From an uncultured Gammaproteobacteria bacterium (GTDB lineage Bacteria; Patescibacteriota; Patescibacteriia; Magasanikbacterales; UBA922): DNA of 64,000 nt. Positions 1 to 20,520 of the stretch are shown piece by piece. Within the stretch, counting starts at the first letter, position 1. Each line of letters opens with the position of its first letter. The DNA is taken from positions 5,624 through 69,623 of the forward strand of contig CAZQXB010000002.1 in the NCBI GenBank assembly GCA_964597575.1, in the 5' to 3' direction. The translations under genes were made by a program, and so were the position numbers. Below the pieces are notes generated by a model that was given only the letters and a program-made list of their open reading frames with translations, did no database searches and was not told the DNA's origin.

Positions 1-1003
1 TCCCCTATTTTTTCATCACCATACTCCATGGCAAGAGTGCTCAGCATCGCAAGCACTGCATCGACATCTTCATACTCCCCTTTTTCATCTTTAGAAAACC
101 GCTCATCAATCAGTTCTTGAATATGAACGTAAGAGATATGCTCTGTAATTTCTGGCATCTTTGGGGTGGGTGGGATTGGTAGTACAGGAGACTGGACCTC
201 TTTTTCTTCTCTTCGAGAAGATCGATTTTTTGATTCCCCACTCACCTCTGGCATACTATTTCCTTCCGACTTTTTTTCTGGAGTTTTGAGCGGAGGGCTG
301 TTTTGAAGTGCTTCATCAGAAAAATTCAATGCTGCTTCTTGGCGTTTGTACATAACATCTACCAAGATATTGGTAATCGCCTCGTTCTTTCTGAGAAAGT
401 CGACAAAAGAAAGAAAAGATCGAGTAATCGCCACCTTATCAACCTCTTCGGTCACTGCATGCAAGGGAGCGTTGGCAAAAAGTTCTTGCTCAATACGCGC
501 GAGCGTGGCTGAATCATCGAGCCCGACATCTTTCCGAACAACAGCACTTCTTTGCTTTATCAAATCTCGAAGCGGTAAACTTCCAGATTTTCCTGGGTTA
601 ATTGGTACGGGGCTTTCTAAAATCTCTTGGCGCATGGAGCGATAGGCCACTTCTATTTCTTTCTCCCCTACATACCTCCGATAGAGAAAAAAGAATACTT
701 GATCTTCGACAGGAAGATTCAACCGAAAGGCGGTCGGTACCTGCCACTTTAAATGGGCAAAAACCTCATTTTCTGGAAGGCGGAGAAAAATATCCCACGT
801 GAGACGAACAAATAATTCCCAGTGATGAGGATACCCACTAATACGGGCGTAGTTCCCCTGATTATCGGCAAAGAAATCTCGCCACAAACGATACAGTTCA
901 TCCACCTGACTCCGTTCAGAAAACACTACATCAAAAGCCGCGTGAAGCGCTTCAGGCTCTGTTTTGATGTTCGGAATGAATGATTGAAGAGCGTCGGGCA
1001 TAT
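1..1003 (-). CDS. hypothetical protein, 5' portion (gene runs off the window start)
   Basis: Minus-strand ATG at 1001-1003 (MPDALQSFIPNIK...) with an AAGGAG 8 nt upstream, lying inside the 3' end of the preceding gene. The frame appears open to the window edge. The ORF track shows no complete minus-strand ORF here, consistent with an edge-truncated gene. No recognisable domain. Confidence 0.45.
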
Positions 1004-1009
1004 AACGTA

Positions 1010-4000
1010 TTAACTCCTTTCTACATTATCCAAAATCTCTTCTATTTTATCTCGGGTTAGCGTAGCATCTCCAGCGGCTGATTTTATGAAAGTATCAAGA
1101 GCTTTTTGACGATAATCAACCTCTGTCTTAGACATACCACCCGAAACTGCTTCAGAAACTCTCACTTCAAGGTCTGCAACAATCTTCTTGAAAATTTCTT
1201 TAATGTCAGAATTTGCAAAATCAAAACCTGTACCATTGAAGCCCCCCTTCATTTCTGTACCACCACTTAGGACATTCATGATGGATTTCTTGATTCCACT
1301 AATGGTTGAGGCATCTGCATTTCCTAAACTTTCGATCAACCTCTGCATATCGCCATCAACGACACTCTCGGCTCGTCCATCTACATTCAGTGTAAACACG
1401 GTTGGCGCACGTTCAATACCAGAAATTCTCTGGTCGCGACGAGCATACTCTACAGATCTATCTTGAATAACAGTACCCATTTTATCAGGGTTGTTTACTG
1501 CATCCGTAATATACTTCACATTCTGCGCATTCGTTCCAATTCCCATTGCTCGCGTAAACCCGTATGCTTCCCTCAAGTCATTTTCGGTATCGAGCCCACG
1601 ACGAACCTGCCCCTTATATTGATACGATTTCGAAAGCTCCGCATTCCGATCCATTGAAGTGGCCAAATTACGAAATGACCCCTGCGCTTTTCCACCTAAA
1701 CTTCTCACCAAATCTTTTTGAGCACCATCGAGTTTCTGCATCTTTTCATCGTCAGAAACCCCTGGGTCAATTCTTTTTTCAAGAGCGCCCTGAAGCCCTA
1801 AAATGATCTGTGGAATGTCTTCGGCACTTTCTGTAATATCTTTGAACCCGATGGCTTTTTCTTCACGTAAAATATTCATGAGGTTGGTTCCCTCTCCGTT
1901 TTCAAGTGAGCTATGAATGAGAGAATCCATATTCCCCCGTGCAGCAGCTAATGCTTTTTGATCTCCCGCTGCTTTTGCCTTATCAATTTCCCTAATATTT
2001 TTTCGAATCGCATCACTTCGTTCTTGAAAATTGAACTTCGCATAGTCAGCCATGGCTTTCCGATGTGCTTCATCTTGACTGAGCATAACCTCTTTAGGAT
2101 CCTGCCCTTGGATGACTCTATCCATATCACGCATCGCTGCTAACTGCCCGACTGTCTTTCCTTCGTAGCCACCCTGCGTTCTCTTCAAAAGCGCATCTTG
2201 ATAAACACTAGCAAGCATTGGCATGCTATTGCCATTTTTTTCTAAGTACTCACCAACAAACTTCGCCCGTTGTTCATCGGTATACTTTGTCTGCCCCGGA
2301 GCAAATGTATTTCGATCCCTTTTCTCCCCTTCTGCAATTTTTTTCTCCAAAGCAGCTTTCTCACGCTCCATCTGTTGATCTCTCAAGCTATATTCCTCTT
2401 TCTTTTGTTCTGCATTTCCTCGTGCTTTTTCCGTTTCCAAAGCAACTGTCGCTCTTGATAAAGCAGAACCAGCTCCTGAGGTTCGTGACCCTCTGGCAAT
2501 ATTGGTATCTCGAACAGCTTTCGTGGTTGCCTGGTACTCAGATAAACGACCTTCAAGCTCTCCATCTTTTGCACCCAGAGTTTTATAGTACCCCTGCTTA
2601 ACCTTTTCAATTCCAACCTGTCCATAGTATTTTCCGTATTTATATGGCAGGTATCCAGTTCCAGCAATTGCACCAGCCTTAAGCGCACCCTTCGTCACTT
2701 TCTTACCGGCACTAATAATGCTTCCCGCAATATCACTTCCACGTAAGCCAATTTTTTGCACACGCTCAATACCGAGAAGAAGAAAACCGACGGCAATGAA
2801 AAACCCGGATAAATTTTCCCAGCGCGCAATAGCGTTAATACTAACTGACGGACTTTCATTCCCTTGTTCAAAAACAAGATCTGAAACTCCTTGCAGTTCT
2901 TCTGCGTTACCCACGGGCCCACCGAGCGAAGCCGAGATATCACCATTTCCAAGTGTTGCAAATGAAAGCCACAAAAAGAAAGCCATCATGGGGCCGACAA
3001 TAATATATTTAGTGAACTCTCCCCAAAATTCTTTGGCATAACTATTGGTTTGGGGCAAAGCAGACAAGACAAAAGCAAGAGGTGACAAAATAATGAGCAT
3101 CCACAGTATAAGAACACGCACCAGCATGAGAAACGCATAGGCACCAATAGTAAAGAGCGATATAATCGAAAAAATAAGCGCTGCCGCTGCACCTGCTAAA
3201 AGATCTAAGTGGATACTCTCGTTTCCTGCAGCGCTACTATTTGTAGAAATCTGCAAAATTTTATCGAGCTGGAGCATATTAATCAGATTTCCTCCGGCTG
3301 CACCCTCTACGGCATTTAAAAATGTCAGAGTTATGACATGCGAAACATCAATAAAAAGCCCTAAAATAAGCCTACTAAAATTAATGAGAATGGCCGCCAT
3401 GATGAGCTGCACCAGCGATTTTTTCCAAGCATAATTTTCAAAACCGAGCATGGTGGAAAAGGCAATAACAAGAAGCGCCACAATAAAAAACATGTTCGCC
3501 AAATCGCGCACCATAAACCACCCCACCACAACAGGAGGGGCATCGATAAATGCGTTATACGCAGCTAATTTAAGAAAATAATCGAGACAAAAAACCGTTA
3601 AACTGAGAAATAGCCGAGAGATGCCAAGAAAAACATAGGAAACCGCGGTTATAATGGCGTTCGCAACACCTTCCGGAGTAAGACTTGGCGCCGAAGCCAC
3701 AGCCTCCTTAGCAACTTCAATGCCTTTGGGCAAGAGATACGGAGCTGCGAGAGCAGCCCCTTCTACAAACTGCGCATGGACCAAAGAAAATGATACAAGA
3801 GAAGCAGCGCCGATAAGGATTAAAAAAACCCAGACTTTGGTATGTCCGATCAACAGAAACTCCTTCCATTTCTGCCAAGCGCGACCGAGGGTTATTGAGA
3901 GGTAGGCACGCATGGAAATATATACAAGGAAAATCACTCTTAACCCCTTCAGTATAGCACAATCGGGCACCCGTGCCCATGGGGATAACGGGGTATTCAT

Positions 4001-4102
4001 GTTATCCACAGTTTGGGTCAAATACTTGACAAAATGCCAAAAATAGTGTCTACTATAGGATAGTTCTCGTAGTTCTTGACAACGTGTGAGGAAGAAATCC
4101 AC
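1010..4102 (-). CDS. large polytopic membrane protein (~8-9 TM in N-terminal 470 aa) with ~550-aa charged coiled-coil C-terminal domain; hypothetical, VirB6/TrbL-like topology possible
   Basis: 1030-aa ORF. N-terminal half has many long hydrophobic segments; C-terminal half is K/E/R/Q-rich with low-complexity coiled-coil character. Start uncertain (alternatives at 4000 or 3913). Stop is 7 nt before the next minus-strand start, so operon-like. Confidence 0.6.
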   Translation of the reverse strand: MDFFLTRCQELRELSYSRHYFWHFVKYLTQTVDNMNTPLSPWARVPDCAILKGLRVIFLVYISMRAYLSITLGRAWQKWKEFLLIGHTKVWVFLILIGAASLVSFSLVHAQFVEGAALAAPYLLPKGIEVAKEAVASAPSLTPEGVANAIITAVSYVFLGISRLFLSLTVFCLDYFLKLAAYNAFIDAPPVVVGWFMVRDLANMFFIVALLVIAFSTMLGFENYAWKKSLVQLIMAAILINFSRLILGLFIDVSHVITLTFLNAVEGAAGGNLINMLQLDKILQISTNSSAAGNESIHLDLLAGAAAALIFSIISLFTIGAYAFLMLVRVLILWMLIILSPLAFVLSALPQTNSYAKEFWGEFTKYIIVGPMMAFFLWLSFATLGNGDISASLGGPVGNAEELQGVSDLVFEQGNESPSVSINAIARWENLSGFFIAVGFLLLGIERVQKIGLRGSDIAGSIISAGKKVTKGALKAGAIAGTGYLPYKYGKYYGQVGIEKVKQGYYKTLGAKDGELEGRLSEYQATTKAVRDTNIARGSRTSGAGSALSRATVALETEKARGNAEQKKEEYSLRDQQMEREKAALEKKIAEGEKRDRNTFAPGQTKYTDEQRAKFVGEYLEKNGNSMPMLASVYQDALLKRTQGGYEGKTVGQLAAMRDMDRVIQGQDPKEVMLSQDEAHRKAMADYAKFNFQERSDAIRKNIREIDKAKAAGDQKALAAARGNMDSLIHSSLENGEGTNLMNILREEKAIGFKDITESAEDIPQIILGLQGALEKRIDPGVSDDEKMQKLDGAQKDLVRSLGGKAQGSFRNLATSMDRNAELSKSYQYKGQVRRGLDTENDLREAYGFTRAMGIGTNAQNVKYITDAVNNPDKMGTVIQDRSVEYARRDQRISGIERAPTVFTLNVDGRAESVVDGDMQRLIESLGNADASTISGIKKSIMNVLSGGTEMKGGFNGTGFDFANSDIKEIFKKIVADLEVRVSEAVSGGMSKTEVDYRQKALDTFIKSAAGDATLTRDKIEEILDNVERS
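4083..4096. repeat. left arm of perfect 14-bp inverted repeat (CGTGTGAGGAAGAA) flanking GC-rich cassette
   Basis: Exact reverse complement of 4706-4719. The arms bracket the only GC-rich segment in this region. Confidence 0.75.
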
Positions 4103-4143
4103 CCCTTACCCCGCCACAGTGCGGGCTGCAGAGGAGAATCACC

Positions 4144-4656
4144 ATGAATACCCATTTCTTTGCCGCCCTTCTGGCGGCTTGCGTCTCTTTCGCCACCGCC
4201 TGCGGTGGTGACGATCCGACGGATCCGGTCAACAACCCCGACAGCGGGGTCGTGAACCCCACCGTCGACAGTGGCTACCCCCCGCCCTCCTGTGAGGGCG
4301 TGTTCTGCCCCGAGCGGCAGATGTGTCAAATCGGCGTGTGCCAGCCGATCCCATCGAGCGACTGCTCGATGTACAACTGGCTCACGGAGCAGGTGTTCAC
4401 CTGCACCCGAGACAAGACCGCGGTCTTCGTGGTTGAAAACAACATGGAGCCGTCGACGTGCGTTCTCCGACCTCCGACAGAGGAGGAGGATCCGTTGTAC
4501 GACGGACTCGACGCCGAGTTCGGCTTGAACCCCGGGGCATCCCATGGAGTAGCGCGGAACGCGCACGCAACCGTGATCGACATGAACGCGGTCGACAAGA
4601 CGTTTTCCGTGACGCACACTCCGTCCGGAAGCCGGTGGGAGTGCAGAATCCCATGA
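4144..4656 (+). CDS. GC-rich (approx 62% GC) Cys-rich putative lipoprotein, foreign-looking
   Basis: GAGGAG RBS 6 nt before the ATG. Lipoprotein-type signal peptide MNTHFFAALLAACVSFATAC with Cys at the cleavage site. CxxxxCxxxxxCxxGxC EGF-like cysteine pattern. Strong GC3 bias unlike neighbours. The antisense ORF 4018-4722 is a GC artefact. Confidence 0.6.
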   Translation: MNTHFFAALLAACVSFATACGGDDPTDPVNNPDSGVVNPTVDSGYPPPSCEGVFCPERQMCQIGVCQPIPSSDCSMYNWLTEQVFTCTRDKTAVFVVENNMEPSTCVLRPPTEEEDPLYDGLDAEFGLNPGASHGVARNAHATVIDMNAVDKTFSVTHTPSGSRWECRIP

Positions 4657-4705
4657 CGAAGTTCTCGATGAGCTTGTGTCTACAAGTTCTGGATGCTTGC
4701 GAACG

Positions 4706-4719
4706 TTCTTCCTCACACG
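4706..4719. repeat. right arm of perfect 14-bp inverted repeat (TTCTTCCTCACACG)
   Basis: Reverse complement of 4083-4096, 50 nt past the cassette stop codon. Confidence 0.75.
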
Positions 4720-4754
4720 CATCCATAGAGCATCAAAAAAATTTGATCTTCTAC

Positions 4755-4795
4755 AAATAAAACAATCTGGCTACATAGCCAGATTGTTTTATTTT
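4755..4795. terminator. bidirectional rho-independent terminator
   Basis: 10-bp stem CAATCTGGCT/AGCCAGATTG with a 4-nt loop, flanked by A-run and T-run. Serves the 3' end of the giant minus-strand gene and the plus-strand cassette gene. Confidence 0.7.
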
Positions 4796-4818
4796 ACTCG
4801 AATGATCTTGTAAACTTA

Positions 4819-7800
4819 TTACTCTTGCGATGGACGAAGTGGAATTACAATGATTTCACCCTGATATCGAGTCCAAACATTCCGCGGATTATTATCGCTT
4901 AAATCATCGCAGATGTCATCGACTATACTTTGAGTATCACTCCCATCATGAAAACCCTGCACTGATTGCACCCCGTTTTCAACCCCGTTACACCACCCCC
5001 AATTATCTTTCACCTGAACTCGGGGACGGAAGACGCATACTCGTTCATTTTCACCGAGTCCATATTCCGCACTTAAACGAACACGGGCATCTGGGTTCTG
5101 AATATCTCCCACCCGAACCGTAAATGCAGCCGGGCTGTTCGGATTCACATCTTCAACCGTACAGGTATAGTCTTTCACAAAGTTAAATGGTCGGGCTAAA
5201 CACGCACGAGGAGAGTTTCCAAATCGAGCAAATTGGTATGAATCAGAACGATCTTGATCGGTATTTGCTGCTGGCCCATAACACCGATAATTTGTTTGAG
5301 CGTTTCTTGGGTCAGTTGTCGGGCAATCCGCATGTGTACGACACGTGAACAAACTGAGGTCAGTGGCAGTAGTTCCACAAAGACCGATGGTTACAATTGC
5401 GTTGTCCGCAGAAGAACAGTAGGGCTTACGATTCTTATATAAACCCGTCTGATTCTCATTCACAATAGGGCTGTTATCACCCCAATTTACCCGTACCTGA
5501 CGAATCGGCATCTTATTGTCGTCGGCTGCCGCAAAAAATTTCATATTTACCTGGAGGTTACCAATACCGATAAGACCCCGAGGATCTGGTGCACCACTTC
5601 GATCAAGGTCTTCATCCGAAGAACCATCTTGACTCCGATCGTAGTTCCGCATCGTGCTATTTTGGCCATTAATTGTCATGTTGTTTGGCTCACCGAGGCC
5701 ACATTTTGACCGTGATTGTTCGCCCACAGTACCACCACCTGGGCAGTTTGCCGGGTTAAGCGAATAGATTTGCGGCGCAACCAAGGTGCCAATTTCTGGC
5801 ACTGGATTACTCACACCACTTCGGTCAACGGCTTGTACTAATGGATCGATGGTCGTACGACTGGTCTGTACATTTGGACGTACACTTGCGTTTTCTAAAC
5901 TAAAGGTATCGAAGGTGAGGGCAAATAAGCGACTGAGTGCGTTTTCACCTGCAGTTTGGTTTTGACCAAGAACGGCCACCTGTGCCGGAATAAGCGGACT
6001 CACGAGAGCTCTTGATTCAAGTGTTGAACAAGGGTGAGCCGTATTTCCTGTTAGATAGAGCGACCCAAACCAGCTTGCCCCGCTACATGCATATGGAACA
6101 CCATCAACTAAATCTTCCCCATGCATACCCGACTGAAATCCGTATCGACGGAGTATCTCAGCCTGTTCGTCTGAAGTGCCAAAATTCGTAATTCGGAGAG
6201 AGCCAAATGGAGAATTCCGCATACCATCTTTCGTAAAGACGCTCCCGAAAGAAGGATGGGTCATCGAACGAATCGCATTACTTACACTACTTACCGCGTT
6301 CGTGGCATACTGCCATACCCGGTTAGTCCATGCTTTATTTAATTGTTCTGTAAGCGGTGCGGAACTGTCGTGCACTTGCGCAACAGCAGTACACTGGTCT
6401 GCCATTTGAGCGATCGTTGCAAAATAGATACCGTCGCTTACATCTGTTGCCTGAAGAACAGATTCATTACACCATCTGCTTACAAAACCTAAGAATTCAC
6501 CATCTTCATTAAAGTCCATCCCAATAGCCACCCAATTTTCCGTGTCTCCATCTCCATCGGCATTCGAATCGGTTTTACACAGAACACTATCGCTAAATGG
6601 ATCACTAATTGGTGCTTGATTTCGGCCAGCGAATGATGACACAGAGGTGTCGAGTTCTTGATTCAACACAAAGGAAGGAAAACGCGATCCTCCACCACTC
6701 GTATTTCCCTGACCCCGGTCAACAAAGAAAATTGAAACATATCGTTCTTGAATACGGTTTCTGCGGCACCATTCTTCAAACTGAGGCCGGACACTGGTCG
6801 TTCCACATTCTTGATTATATTGGTTAAAAAGCCAACCTGAGCCCCCCGTGAGATCCGTATAATCGAGAGAATCAAATTCTGCCCCCTCGGCTTCAGGGCG
6901 CACATACCGAACATTTACCACTACCCCATTATTTCCCCCACCCGCAGGCTCTGCATAGTAATCTCCCTGACTTCCAGCCCCACCAAAAGAGGTTTGGCGG
7001 CCAGACGTAATAATAGGATCATTATGGGCTCTACTTCGAAGAGCAGCCACATCGAGGAAAAACCCATCGTTTAAAATCTGTGGAGCATACCCTTCAAGAC
7101 CTCCCGGAAACGCAAGAGGGACGAAGGTTACTCGAGACAAATCCGATGAGCGCATAAACGCAGTTTCAGCACGTTGCATCACCCGAAAATGACCACTCTG
7201 GATACTCCGCTCAAGTTGGGAATTTGACTGATTAAACGTATCAAGCCGATCTGGAGTCATCCCCAAGTTGTACTGACCATCTGGCGTATTTGGATTTGGA
7301 GCTGGATCAGGCACACCAAGATATGAAGTATTTACCGAAAAGTTATTCATTCGGTCACGATACATGAACACATTGGTCGTGTCTCCAGGTGGCGTTACCC
7401 CAAATTGTCGAGGAGGGTGAAGAAGGGTGCCGAAAGCCGCCACCTCTGCATCAGTTTGGTTTGAAAGAACCAAATCATCATGAACATTGTTCGCAAAAAC
7501 ACTAGGAGTGTACACCTGCAGGTCACTTGCCCGAACGGTATCGTATGTGTTTGGGTCATTACTTCCATTAAGGGAGCTCATTTCTGTGCGAAGGAGCAGA
7601 GCACTTGGACCGAAACGGCGCCATGCCCACGATTGAATGGCCGAGTAAATGTACCCCTGGTCAACCGAGTTACACATGATTCGTTCAAATTCCGTATCTG
7701 TGCTACAGTCTCCTCCGTTCGTTGGGTCCTGGCCTGCAGGAAACACCTGATCGTACACAGTGTTGCCATCCGCTACAGTACGAATGGCATTATCCGTGCC

Positions 7801-10800
7801 ACCACCAACCGGAGGCGAAATATCTGGCGCCTGAAGCCCAACACCAAGACGTGTCGAGTTAACACAGTAGGCCTGTCCTGCAATTTGTGGAGTATTTCTC
7901 AAAAGTAAGGCATCGATATCGGGTTTATACCCCGCTTCGTCATCGGCATTAAAAATATCAAATGTTGAGGCTGACACGCCAATAGGAAGCCAGGTGAGGC
8001 AGGCGTATTCCGTTGGAGAATTTATGCCGTTTACTGGACGACTTAGATCTCGCTCTAAACAGAATCCTTCAAACCCATAATAGGTATCTCTCTTTTGAAT
8101 CGGTATACATTCGTGTGGTGTTTGATTGGTTTGTGGTTGGTTTGGCGTGGCAACATTACACTGCTCAATAGCTGAACATGGGCGGCCTTGGTTTGGCCCC
8201 GTAGCACATACACGCGTTGGGATTGGTGCAGCCGCATTCGCACTTTCATATAAGTAAGGCCAATAATCCACGACTCCGTTTCGGTAGGTTACTTTCACAT
8301 ACTTACACGAACAATCTTCTCCGGTTTGGCACACATTTGCTCCTGCAAATTCATTCAACTTTGAAATAAATTCAACACGGGGAGCAGAAATTCCCAGCGC
8401 TCCAAGTATATTTCTCGCGGTTGTTTCTTGTTTCAGCACTGATTGTGGATACGGTGAAGTGGCCTCAGGGTACGCTTTACACGATGCCGCTTCAAGCACA
8501 GAAACAAGGGATTCAATTTCACGAGGACTGATATTTCCTGAAGGAATTGTACGGTCTGAAGGAAATGTACCCTTTACCGGGCGAATACACTGCCCTGAAT
8601 AACACCGGCCGAGACCACCTGACCCACACACGCGCCAATCAGTGCGCTCATTCCCCACTGGGGCACACGCGCTGTTTGCACTCCGCTGTAAATACACCGC
8701 ATACGCACGCTCTTCAAGGCGCTCAAGGCGACGAAGATCCGCAGCCGCGTCTGGGCTCTGTGGGTTGATAGCTACTTTATCTGCACTCAGATCCAAAACG
8801 ATATATGATTGATTTCCGATTTGATACTGGTTAAACAGTGAGTACCCGCTGTATTCTGGATCATTCCAACCAAGCCCTCGTTGAATATAGAGATCTTCCG
8901 TAAGTTGACGTGATGCTTCAGGGGCAAGTTCCCCTACCCAGTGCGTACAGACACCACCTGCACCCATCTGATCACACGCCTTATAGTCGTAGCAGAGCTC
9001 ACTTTGTCTTCCTTGCTCATCTTCTTGAATCACCTTTCCTTTACATGCAAGCCACTCAGCACAAACACGGTCTCGATCAACCTTAAGCACGATATTTGCA
9101 TCGTTATCAGTAACACTCCCAGCGGAACGAGGAGAAACCGGGGAAAACTCTGGGCTCGCCAAAGCACTCGCGCGGTATGTAGCATCGGTACTATACGTTT
9201 TTCTTGGGTTATCGGTTTGATCAAAGAGAATACAACCGTCAACCTGGCTTGCCCCCGTAGCACAAGCTTGGGCACGGGCGCGAATTTTATCATTGTTCTT
9301 TACATAATACGGCCGACCATTTGGGTAAGCCCCTGATACATCAACCGGGTCAATAAATTCTGTACACAAATGAGCTTCGGCCGCACACACCGCTACACGG
9401 CCCGTATATTCTGGAGAATCATTGGAGCGTACGTCGTATACCACACCGGACGAAGTTCGACGCAAGAATGTTGCGTCACAGGCTACAGCTGACGCGACAC
9501 AGGTATTACCGGCTCCACAATCACTATTATTATTTGTTCGGCAAACCATGGTAGCATCTTGGCTGCACCGACCCATACCTCTCAGAAACCAACCGTTCAC
9601 TCGCGTTTGCCCTACCGATTGGCCTTCAAGGTACTCACACACCCCAGCACCAGTAAATTCAGGGTCACGGAAATAACTCACCGTATTGTCGGAGCGAAAT
9701 TCTGCACAACCAATTTGCTCGGCTTGACAAAGGATTCCGGCGCTTTCCCCAGGGGCCGTAACGTAGTTCGCAGGGTTATTCAAAAGGTACACCTCATTAA
9801 AGGTAAAGGCTGCTGCATCTGCCCGAGGCAATACTTGCGTTTCCATAGCAACTTTCTGGCAGCCAAGTTCAGTTGAGCGGCAAGTAACATCTTTTCTATT
9901 GGTAAGAAAGAGCGGCGCCGCCACTGCCGTATCAGCAGGAATAACTACTGATGTGTTCACTACTCGAAGTGGACCAACAGGAAACACAGTGCCGGTTGGA
10001 ATAATGATCGCTTCATTGATATAACAACCTTCTTGGCCACGTGGAACCGTACATTCATAATCCACATTCGCCACACGAGCAGTACAATTCGCACTTCCAG
10101 GAGCACTGCACCAAACATTGAACGCCTGAGCAAAGGTGGAAGCTGGGGCGGCACCTAACGTATTCTGTGTATCCCATACTGGCTCACATCCAACCGCGGC
10201 TTCACGACAAATCGTTTCAAAACCAGTTGCATAGACCACACGATTCTTGCTGTCCGTATATGCACGGCATCCGAGAGCTTCACCTGGGAATATATCCGTT
10301 GGGGTGCTATCGCACTGGGTTGGAACATCCCCGCCACCGGCTACTCTCCATGAATTTCGGATCAGCGGTGTACGGTCTCGAAGTTCAATTAAACGAACAT
10401 AGTCAAGGAAATAATCCCGTGCGTTTCCTGACCGAACGAACTCAATGGCGAGAGGCTCCGCAGGATCAACACCATCAAGCGAGACTGGCCCAAACGTGAA
10501 CTCCTGCCATCCACCAGTAATACCTGCAAGGGCGGTCGGTTCGGTAAATGCACCAAATTCGACACCATTCGCATTCACTCGACTTCCGTTTTGAGTAAAG
10601 TAAATTTCGAGATTTTGTAACCCGTCAGCTCGGCCCCAGAAGGTAAGAGTGAACGTTTTTCCGACTTGCACTTGAGCCTGAGGAACCGTGCGGGCAACCC
10701 GTGCTGCGGCCGCTGGAATTCCCAAAGAATGTTCACCTACAATAACCGCTTCCCCAGCCAGACGAAGTGCTGCGTTATTTTGAACCGGAGCCCAACCAAG

Positions 10801-13800
10801 GGCCAGCGGTGCCTGAGTATCTTCAAAGTTATCATTAATAACGGTTGCAAAGACATTGCGACCTGTGTTTCCTACATACACTCGGCAATTGTTTGCCAAA
10901 GCTGGGCAAGCGCTCGATTGTCCGGCGGTGGTGAGGGCTTGGTACACACAAGCGCCATTTTCTACACGGCCTCCAGCTGCACAACGGCGGCATTCATTTT
11001 CAGCAACATCCCAACTTCCGCCCCGACCTGTACAAGCAGCACTGTTCGTTAAGACAGCATCAACATAGAGCGATGAATCTGTTTTTCGTAAACGTGAACA
11101 TTCTGCCGAGACAGCGATTGTTTCTGACAATAATCGATAGTACACTTCTCCATTCGCATCATAGAGTGCACGACAGTCAATGTCAGCGCGGTTTGGATTC
11201 ACAGGGTCATTAACACCGAGCGTATAGTTTACTTCGTTACACCGGGTTACGGCGTTTTGGAGCGCCTCACCATTATCGTTTGCATACGTTGGGCTACCAA
11301 CCGCAAAAATGGTATTGTAATTCACTCCTTGCACAGTACCTGCAGCAGTAGCCGCGCTTACCATATACGCACTATTCTGAACATCGAGAGCTACAAGAGT
11401 GTGAACCCGAAGCACATACCCTTCTCGATCCGACCCTTCCCATGAATAGTATGTTTGCCCAGGATTTACCTGCGGTCGTTCACAGCGACGAAGGTCGGTG
11501 TAGTATTCACGACCCTCTCCTCCGCGGGCAGCAACATCGATATTCGTAAATTCCGAACACCCGGCAAAGCGCTCCTGACAGCGGTCGCCTGCTGAAGGAA
11601 TAAAATGAAGGGGAAATACGGCCGGGTCAAAGGCGGTGGCTTCCTGACGGAACGTATCGTAACCAACACAAATTTGGTTACAGGTATTTCCACCGACCAT
11701 ACCTGGAATTGCTGGGGCTCCGGCACCACCAAGAGGTCGATATGATTCACACCCAACTTCTTGTGGCGCACACGCCGCAGCAAACTTACCACAGGCATTA
11801 TTCCGGGCAAAAACGGTTTGCGCTTCGGCGCTGGTTCGTGGCCAATTTACTTCCGGTGTTGCAATGTTTGTATCGTAACAACCAAGATAGTCAGGGGCTT
11901 TTTTCAAATATGCAATTTCACTCACGGGCGCTTGAATATATTGCCCGCCTGCTGTTTGTGAAAACTGACCGCTTTCAACGACGCGAAGTGCAGTAAAGAA
12001 CGCATGACAACCTTCGGCGCCTGTAGGGCATGTTTTTTCTGTACCAATTTGGTTTACAAAGAGTGCTTGATTTCGCCCGAGCGTTACTGTTTTCAAGGCA
12101 AGATTCGCCTGAGCTGTAGGAATCCACTGCCCCTGTGCATTTTGTTCGGTACTGAACGCGCGACAACCAACCGTATCTGCGGTACAGGTAGAAAAATCAA
12201 TAGTACGAGTAAGATACGAGTCAACTTCACCAGTGCTATTTCGGTACGTACGACATGTGGCATACTGTGGTGCACACACATCCCCATTCAGCTTCCAAAT
12301 ATTTTTTTCTTTTGTACAGAAACCCTGACCCATACAGCTTCCATCACTATTTGTTGCGATACAGGTTGCAATGTCAGCACACTCTTCTCCGCGTGTCGGA
12401 GATGCCGGAGTAACAAGGTTCGGCCCAACCACCCGTGCAGGGCAGCTCGCCGAGAAAGAACGGAGTACCCAATTTGGATTAATAAGGTGGCAATACGGAA
12501 ACTGAGCACTTGCACGCCCGTCTGGGGCACAGTTCTCAAAGTTATCAACCACCCTCTGGAGCGTCCAGTTTTCTTGCGGGCTATCTGGATCAGCCTTAAG
12601 CGCAGCGATTTCAAAACCAAGCGGCAAAATACGCGCCTTTCGAAGCTTCTGAATGTTTGAATAACAATACGCATTACTATAGCATTCAGAGTCTCTGTTT
12701 CCGTTTCCTCCGGCAACTTCTCGGCGCGGTGAAATAAGTGGCCAATCTCCATGCAAAAGACCAGCATTCATGGCCTCACGAATGGTCATGGGCTTATCGA
12801 GCGTACCTCGCGTAAGTGCCTGGAATAAACTTTGATCCATGACACAGTTATCAAGTTTCGGATTTTTTGGACAAGTGACAAAATTGAGTAACACGTCGTA
12901 ACTTGGAACACTTACCACCTGAGCCGTAAGTAAATCAGAAAGAACCCCAGCCGGCTCACGATTTCGATTCCCTACAGCGAAAAAATTTGGGTCAAATGCG
13001 TTCGGCTGAAAAAGCCCCTGTTCAAATGTCTGATCAAGAAGTGTAGTAACGAACGACCCTAAGAAGGTCTGTACTGCCAAAGGAATGGCCTGTGCCGCAC
13101 CCGACGCAATGGCGCCACCCAATAATTGAAAACCACCGGTCACGAAATTATCGCTTGCAATATTTTTTGTTGCTGCCTGCTCAAAAAACCTCGCTGGAGT
13201 GAGAATCGTATCAGACACTTTATCTTTCAGATCACGAAATCCATTCCCAATCGTACGTTCAAGACCAGCAGACGCAGCAGCGGTCGCACGAATGGCATCA
13301 ACCTGGGCAATTGCCCCAAAAGCCAAACCAAAGTCAGATTGTTTTACGCTGACCGCATCGCTAAACTTCTGCGGAATGAGCTTACTCGCACCCTTTCCAA
13401 ATTTCCGCTCAAACCCTTCAGCGCTCCAGTTATTTCGAAATTCTTGCAATGTACACCGTGGAGTAGGGGAACCTTGACCGTATAAGTCCCCGATACCGAT
13501 TTGCAAGAAAAGCTGTAAACGAATATCAGGAATCTGACACAAATTTAACCCGAACGGCTGTCCAATACTCACAATCGCCTCCCCTACTGCTCCACCTGCC
13601 ACATCCGCAATATAATCCCCGGCTGGCTTTTCAAAAACCAGTGATTTTTTTCCGGCGGCACTTTCACCTAAAAACTTCGCGGTATCGTAGGCTAATTTTT
13701 TCAAAAAATAACTCGCGGTATTGTAGGCGGTACCAATGGCTGCCTGAAGCACCGCTTCGGTCAAGCTAAACTTAGCTTCCTGTCTCCCTTCTGATTCCCA

Positions 13801-13947
13801 CCGGGGATAGTCGAAAGTCGTTACGTTTTGTACAGCAAACTGCGCGTATGCTGGAGTAAGTGGCTGTAAAACCACACCTCCAAGAACCAAAAATAAAAGA
13901 AAAATACCTGCCATCCGCCTCCCCTTACCTAACAAAAACCTAAACAT
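4819..13947 (-). CDS. giant (3042 aa) secreted Cys-rich surface protein
   Basis: Uninterrupted 9.1-kb ORF. Sec signal peptide (KGRR n-region, hydrophobic core, AYA-QF cleavage site). Hundreds of Cys in recurring C-x-C / C-x-x-C spacings, and Gly/Asn/Thr-rich beta-type repeats. No catalytic motifs recognised. Alternative start at 13914 has a GGAGG RBS. Confidence 0.8.
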   Translation of the reverse strand: MFRFLLGKGRRMAGIFLLFLVLGGVVLQPLTPAYAQFAVQNVTTFDYPRWESEGRQEAKFSLTEAVLQAAIGTAYNTASYFLKKLAYDTAKFLGESAAGKKSLVFEKPAGDYIADVAGGAVGEAIVSIGQPFGLNLCQIPDIRLQLFLQIGIGDLYGQGSPTPRCTLQEFRNNWSAEGFERKFGKGASKLIPQKFSDAVSVKQSDFGLAFGAIAQVDAIRATAAASAGLERTIGNGFRDLKDKVSDTILTPARFFEQAATKNIASDNFVTGGFQLLGGAIASGAAQAIPLAVQTFLGSFVTTLLDQTFEQGLFQPNAFDPNFFAVGNRNREPAGVLSDLLTAQVVSVPSYDVLLNFVTCPKNPKLDNCVMDQSLFQALTRGTLDKPMTIREAMNAGLLHGDWPLISPRREVAGGNGNRDSECYSNAYCYSNIQKLRKARILPLGFEIAALKADPDSPQENWTLQRVVDNFENCAPDGRASAQFPYCHLINPNWVLRSFSASCPARVVGPNLVTPASPTRGEECADIATCIATNSDGSCMGQGFCTKEKNIWKLNGDVCAPQYATCRTYRNSTGEVDSYLTRTIDFSTCTADTVGCRAFSTEQNAQGQWIPTAQANLALKTVTLGRNQALFVNQIGTEKTCPTGAEGCHAFFTALRVVESGQFSQTAGGQYIQAPVSEIAYLKKAPDYLGCYDTNIATPEVNWPRTSAEAQTVFARNNACGKFAAACAPQEVGCESYRPLGGAGAPAIPGMVGGNTCNQICVGYDTFRQEATAFDPAVFPLHFIPSAGDRCQERFAGCSEFTNIDVAARGGEGREYYTDLRRCERPQVNPGQTYYSWEGSDREGYVLRVHTLVALDVQNSAYMVSAATAAGTVQGVNYNTIFAVGSPTYANDNGEALQNAVTRCNEVNYTLGVNDPVNPNRADIDCRALYDANGEVYYRLLSETIAVSAECSRLRKTDSSLYVDAVLTNSAACTGRGGSWDVAENECRRCAAGGRVENGACVYQALTTAGQSSACPALANNCRVYVGNTGRNVFATVINDNFEDTQAPLALGWAPVQNNAALRLAGEAVIVGEHSLGIPAAAARVARTVPQAQVQVGKTFTLTFWGRADGLQNLEIYFTQNGSRVNANGVEFGAFTEPTALAGITGGWQEFTFGPVSLDGVDPAEPLAIEFVRSGNARDYFLDYVRLIELRDRTPLIRNSWRVAGGGDVPTQCDSTPTDIFPGEALGCRAYTDSKNRVVYATGFETICREAAVGCEPVWDTQNTLGAAPASTFAQAFNVWCSAPGSANCTARVANVDYECTVPRGQEGCYINEAIIIPTGTVFPVGPLRVVNTSVVIPADTAVAAPLFLTNRKDVTCRSTELGCQKVAMETQVLPRADAAAFTFNEVYLLNNPANYVTAPGESAGILCQAEQIGCAEFRSDNTVSYFRDPEFTGAGVCEYLEGQSVGQTRVNGWFLRGMGRCSQDATMVCRTNNNSDCGAGNTCVASAVACDATFLRRTSSGVVYDVRSNDSPEYTGRVAVCAAEAHLCTEFIDPVDVSGAYPNGRPYYVKNNDKIRARAQACATGASQVDGCILFDQTDNPRKTYSTDATYRASALASPEFSPVSPRSAGSVTDNDANIVLKVDRDRVCAEWLACKGKVIQEDEQGRQSELCYDYKACDQMGAGGVCTHWVGELAPEASRQLTEDLYIQRGLGWNDPEYSGYSLFNQYQIGNQSYIVLDLSADKVAINPQSPDAAADLRRLERLEERAYAVYLQRSANSACAPVGNERTDWRVCGSGGLGRCYSGQCIRPVKGTFPSDRTIPSGNISPREIESLVSVLEAASCKAYPEATSPYPQSVLKQETTARNILGALGISAPRVEFISKLNEFAGANVCQTGEDCSCKYVKVTYRNGVVDYWPYLYESANAAAPIPTRVCATGPNQGRPCSAIEQCNVATPNQPQTNQTPHECIPIQKRDTYYGFEGFCLERDLSRPVNGINSPTEYACLTWLPIGVSASTFDIFNADDEAGYKPDIDALLLRNTPQIAGQAYCVNSTRLGVGLQAPDISPPVGGGTDNAIRTVADGNTVYDQVFPAGQDPTNGGDCSTDTEFERIMCNSVDQGYIYSAIQSWAWRRFGPSALLLRTEMSSLNGSNDPNTYDTVRASDLQVYTPSVFANNVHDDLVLSNQTDAEVAAFGTLLHPPRQFGVTPPGDTTNVFMYRDRMNNFSVNTSYLGVPDPAPNPNTPDGQYNLGMTPDRLDTFNQSNSQLERSIQSGHFRVMQRAETAFMRSSDLSRVTFVPLAFPGGLEGYAPQILNDGFFLDVAALRSRAHNDPIITSGRQTSFGGAGSQGDYYAEPAGGGNNGVVVNVRYVRPEAEGAEFDSLDYTDLTGGSGWLFNQYNQECGTTSVRPQFEEWCRRNRIQERYVSIFFVDRGQGNTSGGGSRFPSFVLNQELDTSVSSFAGRNQAPISDPFSDSVLCKTDSNADGDGDTENWVAIGMDFNEDGEFLGFVSRWCNESVLQATDVSDGIYFATIAQMADQCTAVAQVHDSSAPLTEQLNKAWTNRVWQYATNAVSSVSNAIRSMTHPSFGSVFTKDGMRNSPFGSLRITNFGTSDEQAEILRRYGFQSGMHGEDLVDGVPYACSGASWFGSLYLTGNTAHPCSTLESRALVSPLIPAQVAVLGQNQTAGENALSRLFALTFDTFSLENASVRPNVQTSRTTIDPLVQAVDRSGVSNPVPEIGTLVAPQIYSLNPANCPGGGTVGEQSRSKCGLGEPNNMTINGQNSTMRNYDRSQDGSSDEDLDRSGAPDPRGLIGIGNLQVNMKFFAAADDNKMPIRQVRVNWGDNSPIVNENQTGLYKNRKPYCSSADNAIVTIGLCGTTATDLSLFTCRTHADCPTTDPRNAQTNYRCYGPAANTDQDRSDSYQFARFGNSPRACLARPFNFVKDYTCTVEDVNPNSPAAFTVRVGDIQNPDARVRLSAEYGLGENERVCVFRPRVQVKDNWGWCNGVENGVQSVQGFHDGSDTQSIVDDICDDLSDNNPRNVWTRYQGEIIVIPLRPSQE

Positions 13948-13959
13948 ACAGAAAAATGG

Positions 13960-14631
13960 CTAGTTATTTTGTGCACCAGGCGGTGCCTCTGCGGCAACAT
14001 TGACTAATGCTTTCGCCTGTAAAAGGAGTGCCTCATCGCTGATTGCAGATAGCTGCTCAGGGGTAATTTTTCCAGTCGACAAGAGCATCGCTCGAAGCTG
14101 AGCGGGATTGCTTAAAAGAACGGAAAGATCGGCATTTGCATCACCCGAGAGAGTTGACCCTGCTCCCACTCCGCTTAAAAATTCAGAGCCATTCGGAACA
14201 GCAGCAAACTGAGAGCCTGGGGTAGTCGTACTTCCTGGTGGAAGCGTATCAGGAGTGGCAGTGCAGGTTTGACCTTGCGGACAGGTAGGATCGCTCCCTA
14301 CAGACAATTCATCCTTATCACTTGATCCGTCGGAATCGGTATCAGGTAAGTACGGACTTGTGCTATAAAAATTAAGCTCTTCGTAATCGTTTAAGCCGTC
14401 GCGGTCAGTATCAAGTTGTTGAAGTTTTGTTTCTTCGTTAGCAAATAAGGCCGAGAGATCATTTTCCGTTGGGTCAAAACGCACGACAAAGGGAGAGTAA
14501 ATCGTATTGCGCAACTGGACAGCCCCAAGCACAACCACCAAAACAGCAAAAAACAGGAGTAAAACAAAGCCTGTCTTCTGCTCCCGAGAAAGTTGTTGAA
14601 TGCGTTCGCCTGTAAACATACGGCCATTCAT
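13960..14631 (-). CDS. membrane-anchored protein with thrombospondin type-3-like Ca-binding repeats (DTDRDGLNDYEE, DTDSDGSSDKDE)
   Basis: N-terminal TM segment, DxDxDG repeats, Thr/Pro/Gly-rich linker. Immediately upstream of the giant gene and co-oriented with it. Confidence 0.6.
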   Translation of the reverse strand: MNGRMFTGERIQQLSREQKTGFVLLLFFAVLVVVLGAVQLRNTIYSPFVVRFDPTENDLSALFANEETKLQQLDTDRDGLNDYEELNFYSTSPYLPDTDSDGSSDKDELSVGSDPTCPQGQTCTATPDTLPPGSTTTPGSQFAAVPNGSEFLSGVGAGSTLSGDANADLSVLLSNPAQLRAMLLSTGKITPEQLSAISDEALLLQAKALVNVAAEAPPGAQNN

Positions 14632-14670
14632 GGCCTTAAGTATACCAAAATAGGTCGAAAAAACAATAAT

Positions 14671-15519
14671 TTACTTGGGCTTTTGGGTGGATAAGTATGA
14701 AGAAAGCTCGTGCGCAATTTTTGTCCACTCTAAAACCGAGAGTGATTCCGCTCGAACATCGGGCCGGATACCGAGCGACTGAAGTATTGACTCCACTACT
14801 TCGGCAGACACATGGAGCCCACCCGCCACATTATTGACCAACTTTTTTCGCTTATGAGAAAAACCTGCCCGTGCCACAAGAAAAAAAAGCTCAGCTTCTG
14901 ATTTCTTTTTTGGTTGAAGCACAATCGAAACGACCGCAGAATCCACTTTAGGGCTCGGCCAAAAAGAACCCTTCGATACATTCATCACTTTTTTTACCTC
15001 TCCATAATATTGAACCCCAAGCGAAAGAAGGCTCATCTCCCCGGGTTTTGCCACCAATCGCTCGGCCACCTCCTTTTGCACCATAACCACAATGTGGGTT
15101 GGTGCTGGATCTGTTTCAACGAACAACCGAATAAGTTCCGAAGTAATATGGTACGGAACATTGGCGACCACTTTATATGGTCGGTCCTGAGGAAAGGGAT
15201 GTGTTTGCGAGGAGGTAAGGACATTTCCCCAAACAACATGCACATTCGGATACTTTTTTATCTGATCATTCCAATACCCCTCTAACGTTTTTTCTATTTC
15301 AAAAGCCGTCACTTCTTTCGCAATTTTGGCAAGTGCCAAGGTAAGAACCCCAAACCCTGGCCCCACCTCAATGACCGTATCCCCAGGCTGAATTTCTGCG
15401 GCCTTAATCATGGCCTCTATGGGGGCATCGTGAATAAGATAATTCTGGCCATAGGCTTTTGAAGGCAATAGTCCGTATTCCGCACAAAGGCGTTTAATGT
15501 CACTCGGGGTTAAAGCCAT
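14671..15519 (-). CDS. rsmA: 16S rRNA (adenine1518/1519-N6)-dimethyltransferase RsmA/KsgA
   Basis: YGQNYL, EVGPGFGVLT (SAM-binding) and ANVPYHITSE motifs. Length is typical (282 aa). Confidence 0.9.
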   Translation of the reverse strand: MALTPSDIKRLCAEYGLLPSKAYGQNYLIHDAPIEAMIKAAEIQPGDTVIEVGPGFGVLTLALAKIAKEVTAFEIEKTLEGYWNDQIKKYPNVHVVWGNVLTSSQTHPFPQDRPYKVVANVPYHITSELIRLFVETDPAPTHIVVMVQKEVAERLVAKPGEMSLLSLGVQYYGEVKKVMNVSKGSFWPSPKVDSAVVSIVLQPKKKSEAELFFLVARAGFSHKRKKLVNNVAGGLHVSAEVVESILQSLGIRPDVRAESLSVLEWTKIAHELSSYLSTQKPK

Positions 15520-15524
15520 ACCAA

Positions 15525-16709
15525 TTATCGAAGATTACTGACGGTTTTTTCTTCCTCCACCACATCCTTCTTTAACCCCGCGTCAGTATACCGATTCGCA
15601 GCGTTCCAAAGAAGCCAACCTGCGTTTGGATACTTTTCGACCATATCAATTTGCGCACGAATGTTCGCGGCTCCGTAGGTTGCCCCGAGGTTAAACGCTT
15701 GAAGCCAAGGGCGAACAGCAGCTCGCTTATCGACAAAATACGGTACACCTTTTTTCATTCCATTATCAATGACAATGCCAGGGCTGGCAGCTGGGTTCAA
15801 TAACCCAAGATGCCCCGATGGATAATGCGACGGATACATCATCGGAGAAATAAAATCAACATGGTCTACAGCATCTTCCAATCGCTGCCCAATCGACATA
15901 CCGTCGTGGCGCTCCATCACAAACCCAAATAAATCAAGAGAAATATAGGCCCCTTCACTCGCAAGCGACTCACCTAAAAATGTATAGAACTCCCGCATAG
16001 TATCGTAACGAGGTTTATCTGGTTCAGAATAGACAACAAGTGACATGTTTCCGTCGGACGGAAATCGCACGTAGTCAAAATTAATCTCATCAAACCCGAG
16101 TGCAACAGATTCTTTGGCTAGTGCAACATTGTATTCCCAGACCTCTTTTTTGGTTGGATCAACCCACGACAACCCTTTATGATCACGCCAAACTCCCCCG
16201 GCTTTACTCTTCATTGCCCACTCTGGCTTTTTTTGAGCAAGGAGTGGATCTTGAAAAACAGTCTGGCGGGCAATGACATAAATTTCCTCATCATGCAGCC
16301 GATCGATAAGTGCTTTTACATCCCCAATACGGTTGTCAGCCGCCCCAATGGATTGCGCAAGTGGAACCTCAGTCGCATAAAGTACCTTTCCGCTGTAATC
16401 TTTCGTATCGATAACCACCGCATTTAATTCTGTTCTTTTAATCAAAGCAATAATTTCATCCATTTTTTTCTTGTTCCCTGCTGAGTACGCTGTAATATAC
16501 ACCCCTTTTACCCCTTCTTCCGGCAAAGGCGGAGGTGACTCAAATACAAAACGTGGAATGTTTGTCGGTGTAGGCTCGAGGACCGCGGCAACGGTTTCAT
16601 CAATATATCTATTTGTCCCGATCCACTGCACACAAAGCGTGAGGGCTGCGAGGACACCGATCGCGATAGCTATAAACTGATGGCGGGGGTGGTGAGTGTG
16701 GAGCGTCAT
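15525..16709 (-). CDS. membrane-anchored putative glycoside hydrolase (GHL10/DUF4015-like TIM barrel)
   Basis: N-terminal TM helix. GVYITAYSAG...ELNAVVIDTKDYSGKVLY and DEINFDYVRFP segments resemble YngK-like putative glycosidases. Confidence 0.4.
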   Translation of the reverse strand: MTLHTHHPRHQFIAIAIGVLAALTLCVQWIGTNRYIDETVAAVLEPTPTNIPRFVFESPPPLPEEGVKGVYITAYSAGNKKKMDEIIALIKRTELNAVVIDTKDYSGKVLYATEVPLAQSIGAADNRIGDVKALIDRLHDEEIYVIARQTVFQDPLLAQKKPEWAMKSKAGGVWRDHKGLSWVDPTKKEVWEYNVALAKESVALGFDEINFDYVRFPSDGNMSLVVYSEPDKPRYDTMREFYTFLGESLASEGAYISLDLFGFVMERHDGMSIGQRLEDAVDHVDFISPMMYPSHYPSGHLGLLNPAASPGIVIDNGMKKGVPYFVDKRAAVRPWLQAFNLGATYGAANIRAQIDMVEKYPNAGWLLWNAANRYTDAGLKKDVVEEEKTVSNLR

Positions 16710-16715
16710 AAAAAA

Positions 16716-18436: not shown

Positions 18437-20077
<1,641 letters not shown>

Positions 20078-20081
20078 TCAA

Positions 20082-20372: not shown

Positions 20373-20394
20373 AAAGAATAAAATTAGAATGGAA

Positions 20395-20421
20395 TTATCA
20401 CTCACTTTGTATGAGTGATAA
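20395..20421 (-). promoter_or_regulatory. CIRCE-like inverted repeat (candidate HrcA operator), variant half-sites TTATCACTC-N9-GAGTGATAA
   Basis: Perfect 9-bp inverted repeat with a 9-nt spacer matching the CIRCE consensus TTAGCACTC-N9-GAGTGCTAA at 8/9 per arm with compensatory changes. Lies between the promoter and the groES start. Confidence 0.55.
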
Positions 20422-20432
20422 TTTGTATACTC

Positions 20433-20460: not shown

Positions 20461-20520
20461 GGGAGGGAAATCCACATGTGCCCCGGCTCAAAAAATACAC
20501 GAAAAAATAAAAAACCCAGA

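Follow-up and report, generated by a model that had tools for sequence, protein, structure and literature searches.

A giant cysteine-rich secreted protein and its membrane partner beside the presumed head of a type IV secretion gene cluster in Magasanikbacteria

The type IV secretion systems (T4SSs) of Patescibacteria, surveyed in 2025 by Quinonero-Coronel et al., are chromosomal, comprise VirB6, PrgI/VirB3 and VirB4 and have no relaxase gene nearby; KsgA is common near virB4, and comF follows the cluster in the class ABY1 (PMC12102498). That survey reported no adhesin such as PrgB, and a search of its text turned up neither a giant or large protein nor Magasanikbacteria (PMC12102498). The role of T4SSs in the candidate phyla radiation (CPR) has been called completely unknown, yet the system is essential for epibiotic growth in one tested species (PMC11665869). 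In pCF10 of Enterococcus faecalis, the surface genes prgA, prgB and prgC are followed by those for PrgH (VirB6), PrgI (VirB3) and PrgJ (VirB4). Peribacteria, a CPR lineage, encode large, cysteine-rich, unannotated extracellular proteins that bear signal peptides and have been proposed for attachment (PMC4736985). Here we describe a stretch of 64,000 nucleotides of an uncultivated, ultrasmall bacterium of the Magasanikbacteria type, from contig CAZQXB010000002.1 (assembly GCA_964597575.1, positions 5,624 to 69,623 of the forward strand; the whole stretch is called the window below), in which the genes for a giant secreted protein and a small membrane partner lie next to a gene for a VirB6-like membrane protein. 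On balance, we favor the explanation that these are two adjacent conserved chromosomal modules, namely, a surface-protein pair and the head of a T4SS.

The T4SS assignment was examined in 80 related loci (cited below by their L numbers), onto which the cluster proteins were mapped. Among the 53 loci that extend at least 10.5 kb beyond the start of the VirB6-like gene, 50 encode PrgI and a split VirB4 downstream of it, PrgI starting 4.6 to 9.5 kb from the beginning of that gene, with a median of 6.3 kb. In GCA_000990355.1, two or three unknown genes come after the orthologue, and then PrgI (PF12666), a TraC-like open reading frame (ORF) and a DUF87/P-loop_TraG ATPase. The closest relative, L006, shows the order VirB6-like gene, genes for 341- and 281-amino-acid proteins, PrgI (2.3e-10), an ORF for the TraC N-terminal part, VirB4 ATPase (P-loop_TraG, 3.8e-29), a gene for a 191-amino-acid protein and ComFC. 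The first of these followers has a counterpart at the edge of the window, ORF 3-1001, of which 333 of about 341 expected residues are seen; its soluble product is 44% identical over 335 residues to that of the 341-amino-acid gene of L006 and lies at the same position. Homologues of this ORF occupy the position in about 25 loci, and it had no family match in Pfam/NCBIfam-type scans.

A search for virB4 or pilus genes, proposed in the earlier note on this DNA, thus came out differently inside the window and in its relatives: T4SS ATPases, VirB3/PrgI and VirD4 are not encoded in the window, but PrgI and VirB4 follow in the related loci. Projected from the latter, PrgI/VirB3 and the split VirB4 should lie 0.7 to 5.6 kb beyond window position 1. 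These data support the conclusion that the window holds the first genes of a Patescibacteria-type chromosomal, relaxase-less T4SS resembling mating-pair formation type FATA (MPF-FATA), a system that is already known and not new. The likeness to the surveyed systems extends from the chromosomal VirB6, PrgI/VirB3 and VirB4 genes without a relaxase nearby to the presence of KsgA/RsmA, to comF, as in ABY1, and to a gene order that fits the 50 loci (PMC12102498); the difference is that the window holds just the first two genes of the cluster. The architecture, which had been called unannotated, is therefore so for the giant protein but not for the T4SS, described in 2025 (PMC12102498).

Three side observations concern these clusters. 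The VirB4 gene is split consistently (L004 18541-21100; L006 5061-7646; most of L006-L085) into a TraC-like part of 229 to 234 amino acids and a P-loop ATPase of 617 to 623 amino acids. Directly after the T4SS cluster of L006, at 8237-8896, lies a ComFC-like gene (phosphoribosyltransferase plus double zinc ribbon), whose position hints at a role in DNA uptake. In and beside the T4SS cluster of GCA_000990355.1, there are genes for 23S rRNA intervening-sequence proteins (PF05635; L001 2821-3177 and 26627-26989).

The protein at the head of the cluster had been taken for a 1030-amino-acid, VirB6/TrbL-like protein with about nine transmembrane helices and a coiled-coil tail. We indeed found about 8 to 10 hydrophobic segments in residues 81 to 451 of the ORF, and hence at least five transmembrane helices, followed by a charged tail of 580 amino acids, but the start probably lies later, and the public copy is a protein of 967 amino acids. 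Its homologues comprise 195 proteins, in which the membrane domain of about 390 amino acids is 40 to 70% identical, and 374 relatives in genome contigs (45 to 70% identity). These proteins are 900 to 1,770 amino acids long, and it is the C-terminal part that differs in sequence and length while the transmembrane domain is conserved.

Several lines of evidence, weak but agreeing, support a VirB6/TrbL-like identity. TrbL (PF04610) was matched in 11 of 41 homologues scanned singly, with a best score of 24.7 bits against a cut-off of 25.9, and was the only Pfam family to recur. NCBIfam NF046089, the CD3337/EF1877 mobilome membrane family of Gram-positive VirB6-type proteins, gave a weak match (E = 0.0028) at identical profile positions. 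AlphaFold modeled the transmembrane domain as an all-helical bundle (predicted local distance difference test [pLDDT], 77.8; predicted template modeling score [pTM], 0.70), and the top five Foldseek matches of this model in the PDB were all R388 TrwI/VirB6 (PDB 8rt9, 8rtd and 7o3v; probability, 0.77 to 1.00; E, 0.02 to 0.14; TM-score, 0.22 to 0.41), no other fold reaching a probability of 0.5. When the family profile was aligned by hhalign with the single sequences of TrwI and PrgH, the same conserved transmembrane segment was matched, with E about 0.05. The VirB6 guess is further supported because PrgI and VirB4 follow in the related loci. Both TrwI and the window protein are polytopic, and TrwI is the only high-probability fold match, but identity is 14 to 16%, and TrwI, with 342 amino acids, lacks the long charged tail.

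If, instead, this ORF encoded an unrelated polytopic transporter or scaffold that resembles VirB6 superficially, one would understand why the window protein has no Pfam match even at E ≤ 10, why all Foldseek E values exceed 0.001 with TM-scores below 0.5, and why the hhalign comparisons with TrwI and PrgH are not significant. We nevertheless consider this very improbable, given that VirB6 is the sole fold family found at high probability, that TrbL alone recurs among the homologues, that the gene heads a PrgI-VirB4 cluster in almost all related loci, and that Pfam, NCBIfam and the PDB yielded no match to a transporter family.

The tail of the VirB6-like protein is rich in glycine, alanine, lysine and glutamate, lacks cysteine and tryptophan, and is probably cytoplasmic, since it follows a positively charged stretch. 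The sole basis for regarding it as a coiled coil is its composition together with compositional matches to SMC and TolA; in the comparison of the family profile with the PDB, the SMC, TolA and dynactin coiled-coil matches that arose from the tail were discarded as uninformative. A long C-terminal extension of variable length is also a feature of the extended VirB6 proteins of Rickettsiales, such as Anaplasma VirB6-4, which are described as a VirB6 domain with a very long extension (PMC7648143); this likeness is one of description only, and those systems are P-type systems of diderm bacteria.

The neighboring module is dominated by the giant protein. From the start used in public copies, it has 3031 amino acids (100% match to P0121, 3031 amino acids); the giant ORF reported in the earlier note is real and uninterrupted, but its likely start is later. 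No break that would suggest a pseudogene was seen, and the protein is collinear with homologues of equal length. It contains 100 cysteines (3.3%) and not the several hundred previously attributed to it. Across 44 aligned sequences, which are 33 to 47% identical to the query, 94 of these cysteines reach a conservation of 90% or more, which implies that the giant would hold a fixed framework of roughly 47 to 50 disulfides. A word-indexed search returned 252 homologues, and an exhaustive phmmer search with residues 1 to 1200 returned 1,351 cluster representatives, of which 1,079 had E ≤ 1e-30. Members of the family have, with few exceptions, 2,500 to 3,300 amino acids and align collinearly from the N terminus. 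The window protein itself matched nothing in Pfam, NCBIfam or PDB sequences, and nothing specific on this family in Magasanikbacteria was found in the literature. The giant and its partner are a large, unannotated and uncharacterized family that is new.

The only hydrophobic segment of the giant is its N-terminal Sec signal peptide, which shows a conserved PAxAQ consensus with an invariant A24, the cleavage site being a predicted one. Residues 25 to 333 were modeled by AlphaFold 2 as long helices (pLDDT, 25 to 64) and contain motifs conserved in the alignment. Conservation peaks at residues 334 to 2020, where column identity per 100 amino acids is 0.34 to 0.56, and again at residues 2701 to 3031. 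About 12 copies of the motif C-x5-6-[GNL]-C-x-x-[FYV] occur between residues 570 and 1650. Between the two conserved parts, at about residues 2021 to 2700, column identity falls to 0.15 to 0.28, and the gap fraction is 0.21 to 0.41. The C-terminal region has near-invariant columns and the consensus motifs DDNRMPIRRVxVDWGDG and DNWGWCNG, which matched no family. Self-BLAST detected no internal repeats, and a repetitive adhesin was rejected on these grounds. We found no LPXTG motif and no transmembrane segment beyond the N-terminal one, the protein ending in ...IVIPLRPSQE. Features of the PrgB/aggregation substance type are likewise missing, there being neither LPXTG nor any adhesin-domain match in Pfam, NCBIfam or PDB sequences.

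One domain of the giant, at about residues 1020 to 1190, could be recognized. Foldseek related this jelly-roll region to carbohydrate-binding modules (CBMs), the matches being CBM22 4xup_C (E = 4.5e-6; TM-score on the target, 0.71) and CBM4 1gui (E = 3.1e-5). Pfam CBM_4_9 was matched by 5 of 16 giant homologues, the best at 2.6e-6, and the family profile matched PDB 1gui with E = 0.04; the likeness to CBM4, CBM9 and CBM22 is one of fold, with the window protein itself below Pfam detection. The local pLDDT of the domain is 62 to 86. It is the only recognizable domain of the giant, one domain in about 3,000 residues; the other better-modeled parts (residues 334 to 530 and 780 to 1010) gave no Foldseek match.

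A carbohydrate-binding domain would also suit a secreted enzyme or toxin acting on the host wall, with the CBM-type domain targeting polysaccharide and a catalytic domain that is not recognized. A DUF4015 putative glycosyl hydrolase gene adjoins the locus in this genome, and relatives encode giants with an M23 peptidase or a transglutaminase core near the T4SS. Yet no catalytic family was detected among the 16 homologues scanned against Pfam or in the profile search against the PDB, and the DUF4015 neighbor is not conserved with the giant. The always-present partner and the roughly 47 to 50 conserved disulfides, moreover, suit a retained structural protein. We therefore regard an enzyme or toxin as unlikely.

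The partner is a protein of 223 amino acids with a positive N terminus and a single transmembrane helix (N-in), because of which its C-terminal part should be outside the cell. Two DxDxDG loops and a CxxGxxC motif occur in this part, as do a linker that varies and a helical end that is conserved. The loops, DTDRDGLNDYEE and DTDSDGSSDKDE, are of the DxDxDG-type, putatively calcium-binding; the first is conserved in 3 of 4 aligned homologues (DTDKDTLSDYDE in L087), and the second differs in two (DTDSDGINDKTE in L001 and DTDSDKRADATE in L087). The earlier description of a TSP3-repeat calcium-binding membrane protein fits these two plain motifs, but the match to Pfam TSP3_bac (PF18884) remained below the cut-off (22.4 bits versus 25; E = 1.1e-4), and the homologue in L086 carries a precomputed TSP3 match that is labeled weak. 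In every genome readable at this position (L001-L003, L063, L068, L078, L084, L086 and L087), a partner gene with 40 to 44% identity lies directly upstream of the giant, and the two still adjoin in a genome in which the giant is about 380 kb away from the T4SS. Since the giant itself lacks an anchor, we infer that the partner may keep it on the cell surface, perhaps depending on calcium.

The mechanism that we propose from these features has two parts. In the first module (13960-14631 and 4819-13914), the small partner, with one N-terminal helix, would display two TSP3-type calcium-binding loops outside the cell, and the giant would be Sec-exported, stiffened by some 47 to 50 conserved disulfide bonds and non-repetitive, carrying one carbohydrate-binding-type beta-sandwich and one fast-evolving region. 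Held on the surface by the partner, it could form a rigid contact or attachment structure directed toward a host cell or glycans. The second module (1010-3913 and 3-1001) would be the T4SS head, composed of a VirB6-like channel subunit and a lineage-variable soluble protein. In the least secure step, the giant would supply the extracellular contact for the T4SS, the role played by PrgA, PrgB and PrgC in pCF10.

The comparison with pCF10 shows where this proposal leads away from known systems. Surface genes precede those for VirB6, PrgI and VirB4 in both cases, the envelope is of the monoderm type, and PrgI is shared (PF12666). In contrast, the giant has no sequence or fold similarity to PrgA, PrgB or PrgC, lacks LPXTG, is 2 to 3 times larger and is disulfide-rich, and the locus is chromosomal, with no relaxase or coupling protein seen. 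The Peribacteria proteins, likewise large, cysteine-rich and unannotated, equipped with a signal peptide and from a CPR lineage, are set apart by their description: they average about 1,650 amino acids and vary between strains, whereas the giant is a single, collinear and strongly conserved protein of about 3,000 amino acids with a fixed partner (PMC4736985).

Whether the two modules belong to one machine, as the earlier note had supposed, was assessed from their distance in 46 informative loci. In 24 of these, no more than 10 kb separates the giant from the VirB6-like gene downstream of it, and in a neighbor-joining tree of the VirB6 domain the adjacent state is found in several deep clades. 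The giant of L086 lies farther upstream, at 13 kb, and the space between is taken by two large secreted proteins, one of 1,563 amino acids with a transglutaminase core and one of 1,747 amino acids with CBM_4_9 (18686-23377 and 24883 onward). Upstream of the VirB6-like gene, L009 (2435-5980) and L027 (1663-5835) encode giants with an M23 peptidase, of 1,181 and 1,390 amino acids, respectively, which could be VirB1-type wall hydrolases.

The adjacency is thus real in about half of the loci, but the modules are unlinked in one large clade, to which most of the non-adjacent loci belong; there the T4SS follows SecY-Adk-CAP-Map-RecO-aaRS-RsmB (aaRS, aminoacyl-tRNA synthetase), and the giant is missing from the locus. 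At least one genome of this clade carries RsmA, partner and giant at a distance of about 380 kb. Also part of the conserved block are prfB, Sua5, RsmA and GroEL, and since it holds genes such as prfB, Sua5 and RsmA, the adjacency of giant and T4SS may reflect inherited gene order rather than function. In the window, a perfect 18-bp hairpin follows 24 nucleotides after the stop of the giant gene (-30.1 kcal/mol; z = -8.7; equaled by none of 200 shuffles). It was missed by a simple terminator scan, and, as folded, is probably an intrinsic terminator. The two modules are further kept apart by a foreign-looking GC-rich island, and positions 3979-3951, ahead of the M64 start of the VirB6-like gene, resemble a promoter. 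Because of the hairpin, the island and the promoter-like site, co-transcription of the giant and VirB6-like genes in the window is unlikely.

These facts, from the unlinked clade to the hairpin and the island, weigh against the explanation that we favor, and so do several others already touched upon or given here. The window encodes none of the T4SS ATPases, VirB3/PrgI or VirD4; the VirB6 evidence is individually weak (Foldseek E, 0.02, with a TM-score of 0.3 to 0.4; hhalign E, about 0.05), with no Pfam match for the window protein; and no homology of giant or partner to a known T4SS component or adhesin was found in Pfam, NCBIfam or the PDB. The AlphaFold model of residues 1 to 1200 of the giant is poor overall (pLDDT, 60.5) and does not resolve the N-terminal third or the cysteine-rich folds, and the retention of the giant by its partner is something that we purely infer.

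Part of this evidence would be accounted for if giant and partner formed an envelope structure in its own right, with no tie to the T4SS, and lay next to it through inherited gene order around rsmA; this could be a coat of the S-layer kind, a scaffold of the wall or a general attachment organelle. The RsmA-partner-giant order stays intact where the T4SS is far away, the T4SS of a whole clade sits among housekeeping genes, a terminator hairpin lies just behind the giant gene, and the unrelated prfB, Sua5 and GroEL are conserved in the same block; constant length, lack of repeats and near-invariant cysteines also speak for a structural component rather than a fast-evolving adhesin. Opposed to this, the adjacency persists across deep clades whose VirB6 domains are only 40 to 50% identical, in loci that lack the giant other large secreted proteins recur ahead of the VirB6-like gene, and the size of the giant (330 kDa as a monomer), its CBM-type domain and its hypervariable segment are more in keeping with a contact protein than with a lattice coat. 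We consider a stand-alone structure a possible, though less probable, explanation than that of two adjacent modules, which we retain. Functional coupling of the giant to the T4SS is a separate matter, on which we remain doubtful. In its strongest form, which is offered only tentatively, giant and partner would provide the Patescibacteria T4SS with the extracellular contact or adhesin module that is missing from it, and the CBM-type domain and hypervariable segment would set host specificity in Magasanikbacteria.

The features of the locus are compiled in the table. A string of co-oriented minus-strand genes spans window positions 1-17822, from prfB to ORF 3-1001, and the gene order and coordinates given earlier for it proved correct on re-examination. 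The gap between giant and VirB6-like genes measures 716 bp for the maximal VirB6-like ORF or 905 bp for its probable M64 start.

Features of the window (positions within the 64,000 nucleotides; amino acid [aa] numbers are those of the encoded protein)
Feature	Position	Strand	Remarks
Soluble protein ORF	3-1001	-	Runs off window edge; 8 bases after VirB6-like ORF
VirB6-like 1030-aa ORF	maximal 1010-4102; probable start M64 = 3913	-	
Charged C-terminal tail of VirB6-like protein, aa 452-1030	1010-2749	-	From composition
VirB6/TrbL-like polytopic membrane domain, aa 64-451 of maximal ORF	2750-3913	-	
GC-rich island between modules	4051-4725	+	675 bp; up to 66% GC versus 46% GC for window
Hairpin after giant stop, probable terminator	4755-4794	-	From RNA fold
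Giant ORF	maximal 4819-13947; probable 4819-13914	-	9.1 kb
Conserved Cys-rich C-terminal region of giant, aa 2701-3031 plus stop	4819-5814	-	Near-invariant columns
Variable gap-rich region of giant, about aa 2021-2700	5815-7854	-	From 44-sequence alignment
Conserved Cys-rich core of giant, aa 334-2020	7855-12915	-	Column identity per 100 aa
CBM4/9/22-like jelly-roll domain, about giant aa 1020-1190	10345-10857	-	Inside core
Cys-poor N-terminal region of giant, aa 25-333	12916-13842	-	Predicted helical
Sec signal peptide of giant, aa 1-24	13843-13914	-	Predicted cleavage between ...PAYA and Q
223-aa transmembrane partner protein	13960-14631	-	TSP3_bac, 22.4 bits
RsmA/KsgA 16S rRNA dimethyltransferase	14671-15519	-	Pfam RrnaAD, 5e-50
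DUF4015 putative glycosyl hydrolase	15525-16709	-	Pfam PF13200, 7e-103
prfB	16716-17822	-	Head of string
DsbD_TM + Redoxin + Thioredoxin_10 fusion	32126-33874		Pfam domains
Thioredoxin lipoprotein	33905-34507		Adjoins DsbD fusion
DsbA-like gene	44065-44832		Separate

The glycosyl hydrolase-like gene and rsmA, which had been counted as parts of the system, were rejected as such: their linkage to the giant differs among genomes, and both are housekeeping neighbors. A DUF4015 gene is found upstream in L001, and Sua5 instead in L086 and L087, and we treat the former as a neighbor gene. RsmA holds the same position in L001, L068 and L087 and usually lies upstream of the anchor-giant pair; its presence recalls that of KsgA near virB4 in other Patescibacteria (PMC12102498).

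Three thiol-disulfide oxidoreductases are indeed encoded in the window, but they cannot be called dedicated to the giant, since they lie 18 to 30 kb away from it amid housekeeping genes, and this part of the claim was rejected. They show that extracytoplasmic disulfide machinery is present, which agrees with the disulfides expected in the giant but does not point to them specifically.

The island between the modules contains, on the strand opposite to the modules, an ORF (4144-4656, plus strand) with a good Shine-Dalgarno sequence that encodes a cysteine-rich, lipoprotein-like protein of 170 amino acids. This protein had no homologue in 5.8 billion proteins, not even a match to itself, no Pfam match and no tblastn match in the 80 related loci. 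Either foreign DNA inserted here or a chimeric assembly could account for the island. Further GC-rich islands (up to 69% GC) occupy 43026-44050 of the window and, more weakly, 27051-27775 and 47776-48175; they contain long ORFs on both strands without a Pfam match and may be insertions of the same kind.

The proposed CPR origin of the DNA was borne out by the homologues. For both large proteins, those with a named source come from metagenome-assembled genomes (MAGs) of "Candidatus Magasanikbacteria"/Patescibacteria, the exceptions being one from Nomurabacteria and records titled "uncultured Gammaproteobacteria bacterium"; NCBI places Magasanikbacteria in the Patescibacteria group, Parcubacteria group. 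Many MAG records among L006-L082 that contain Magasanikbacteria-type loci bear the same gammaproteobacterial title, and these source labels are unreliable and look mislabeled. Over the 64 kb, GC skew is negative throughout, nearly all genes lie on the minus strand, and no tRNA gene or Rfam family was found at threshold. The window further encodes a Wzy_C/O-antigen-ligase-like membrane protein (20723-22114) and a class A penicillin-binding protein with transglycosylase and transpeptidase domains (59318-61492).

Taken together, our analysis describes a family of more than 1,000 sequence clusters of secreted proteins of about 330 kDa that have a fixed membrane partner and are often encoded beside a T4SS. 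The giant is thereby a concrete candidate for the host-contact component of this system, and, if the connection holds true, it would represent a new, non-homologous solution to the role that is filled elsewhere by PrgA, PrgB and PrgC or by pili. If the link is not real, the pair would still be among the most conserved lineage-specific envelope proteins of Magasanikbacteria, a lineage without a cultured member, and would serve as a model for disulfide-stabilized surface structures of the CPR.

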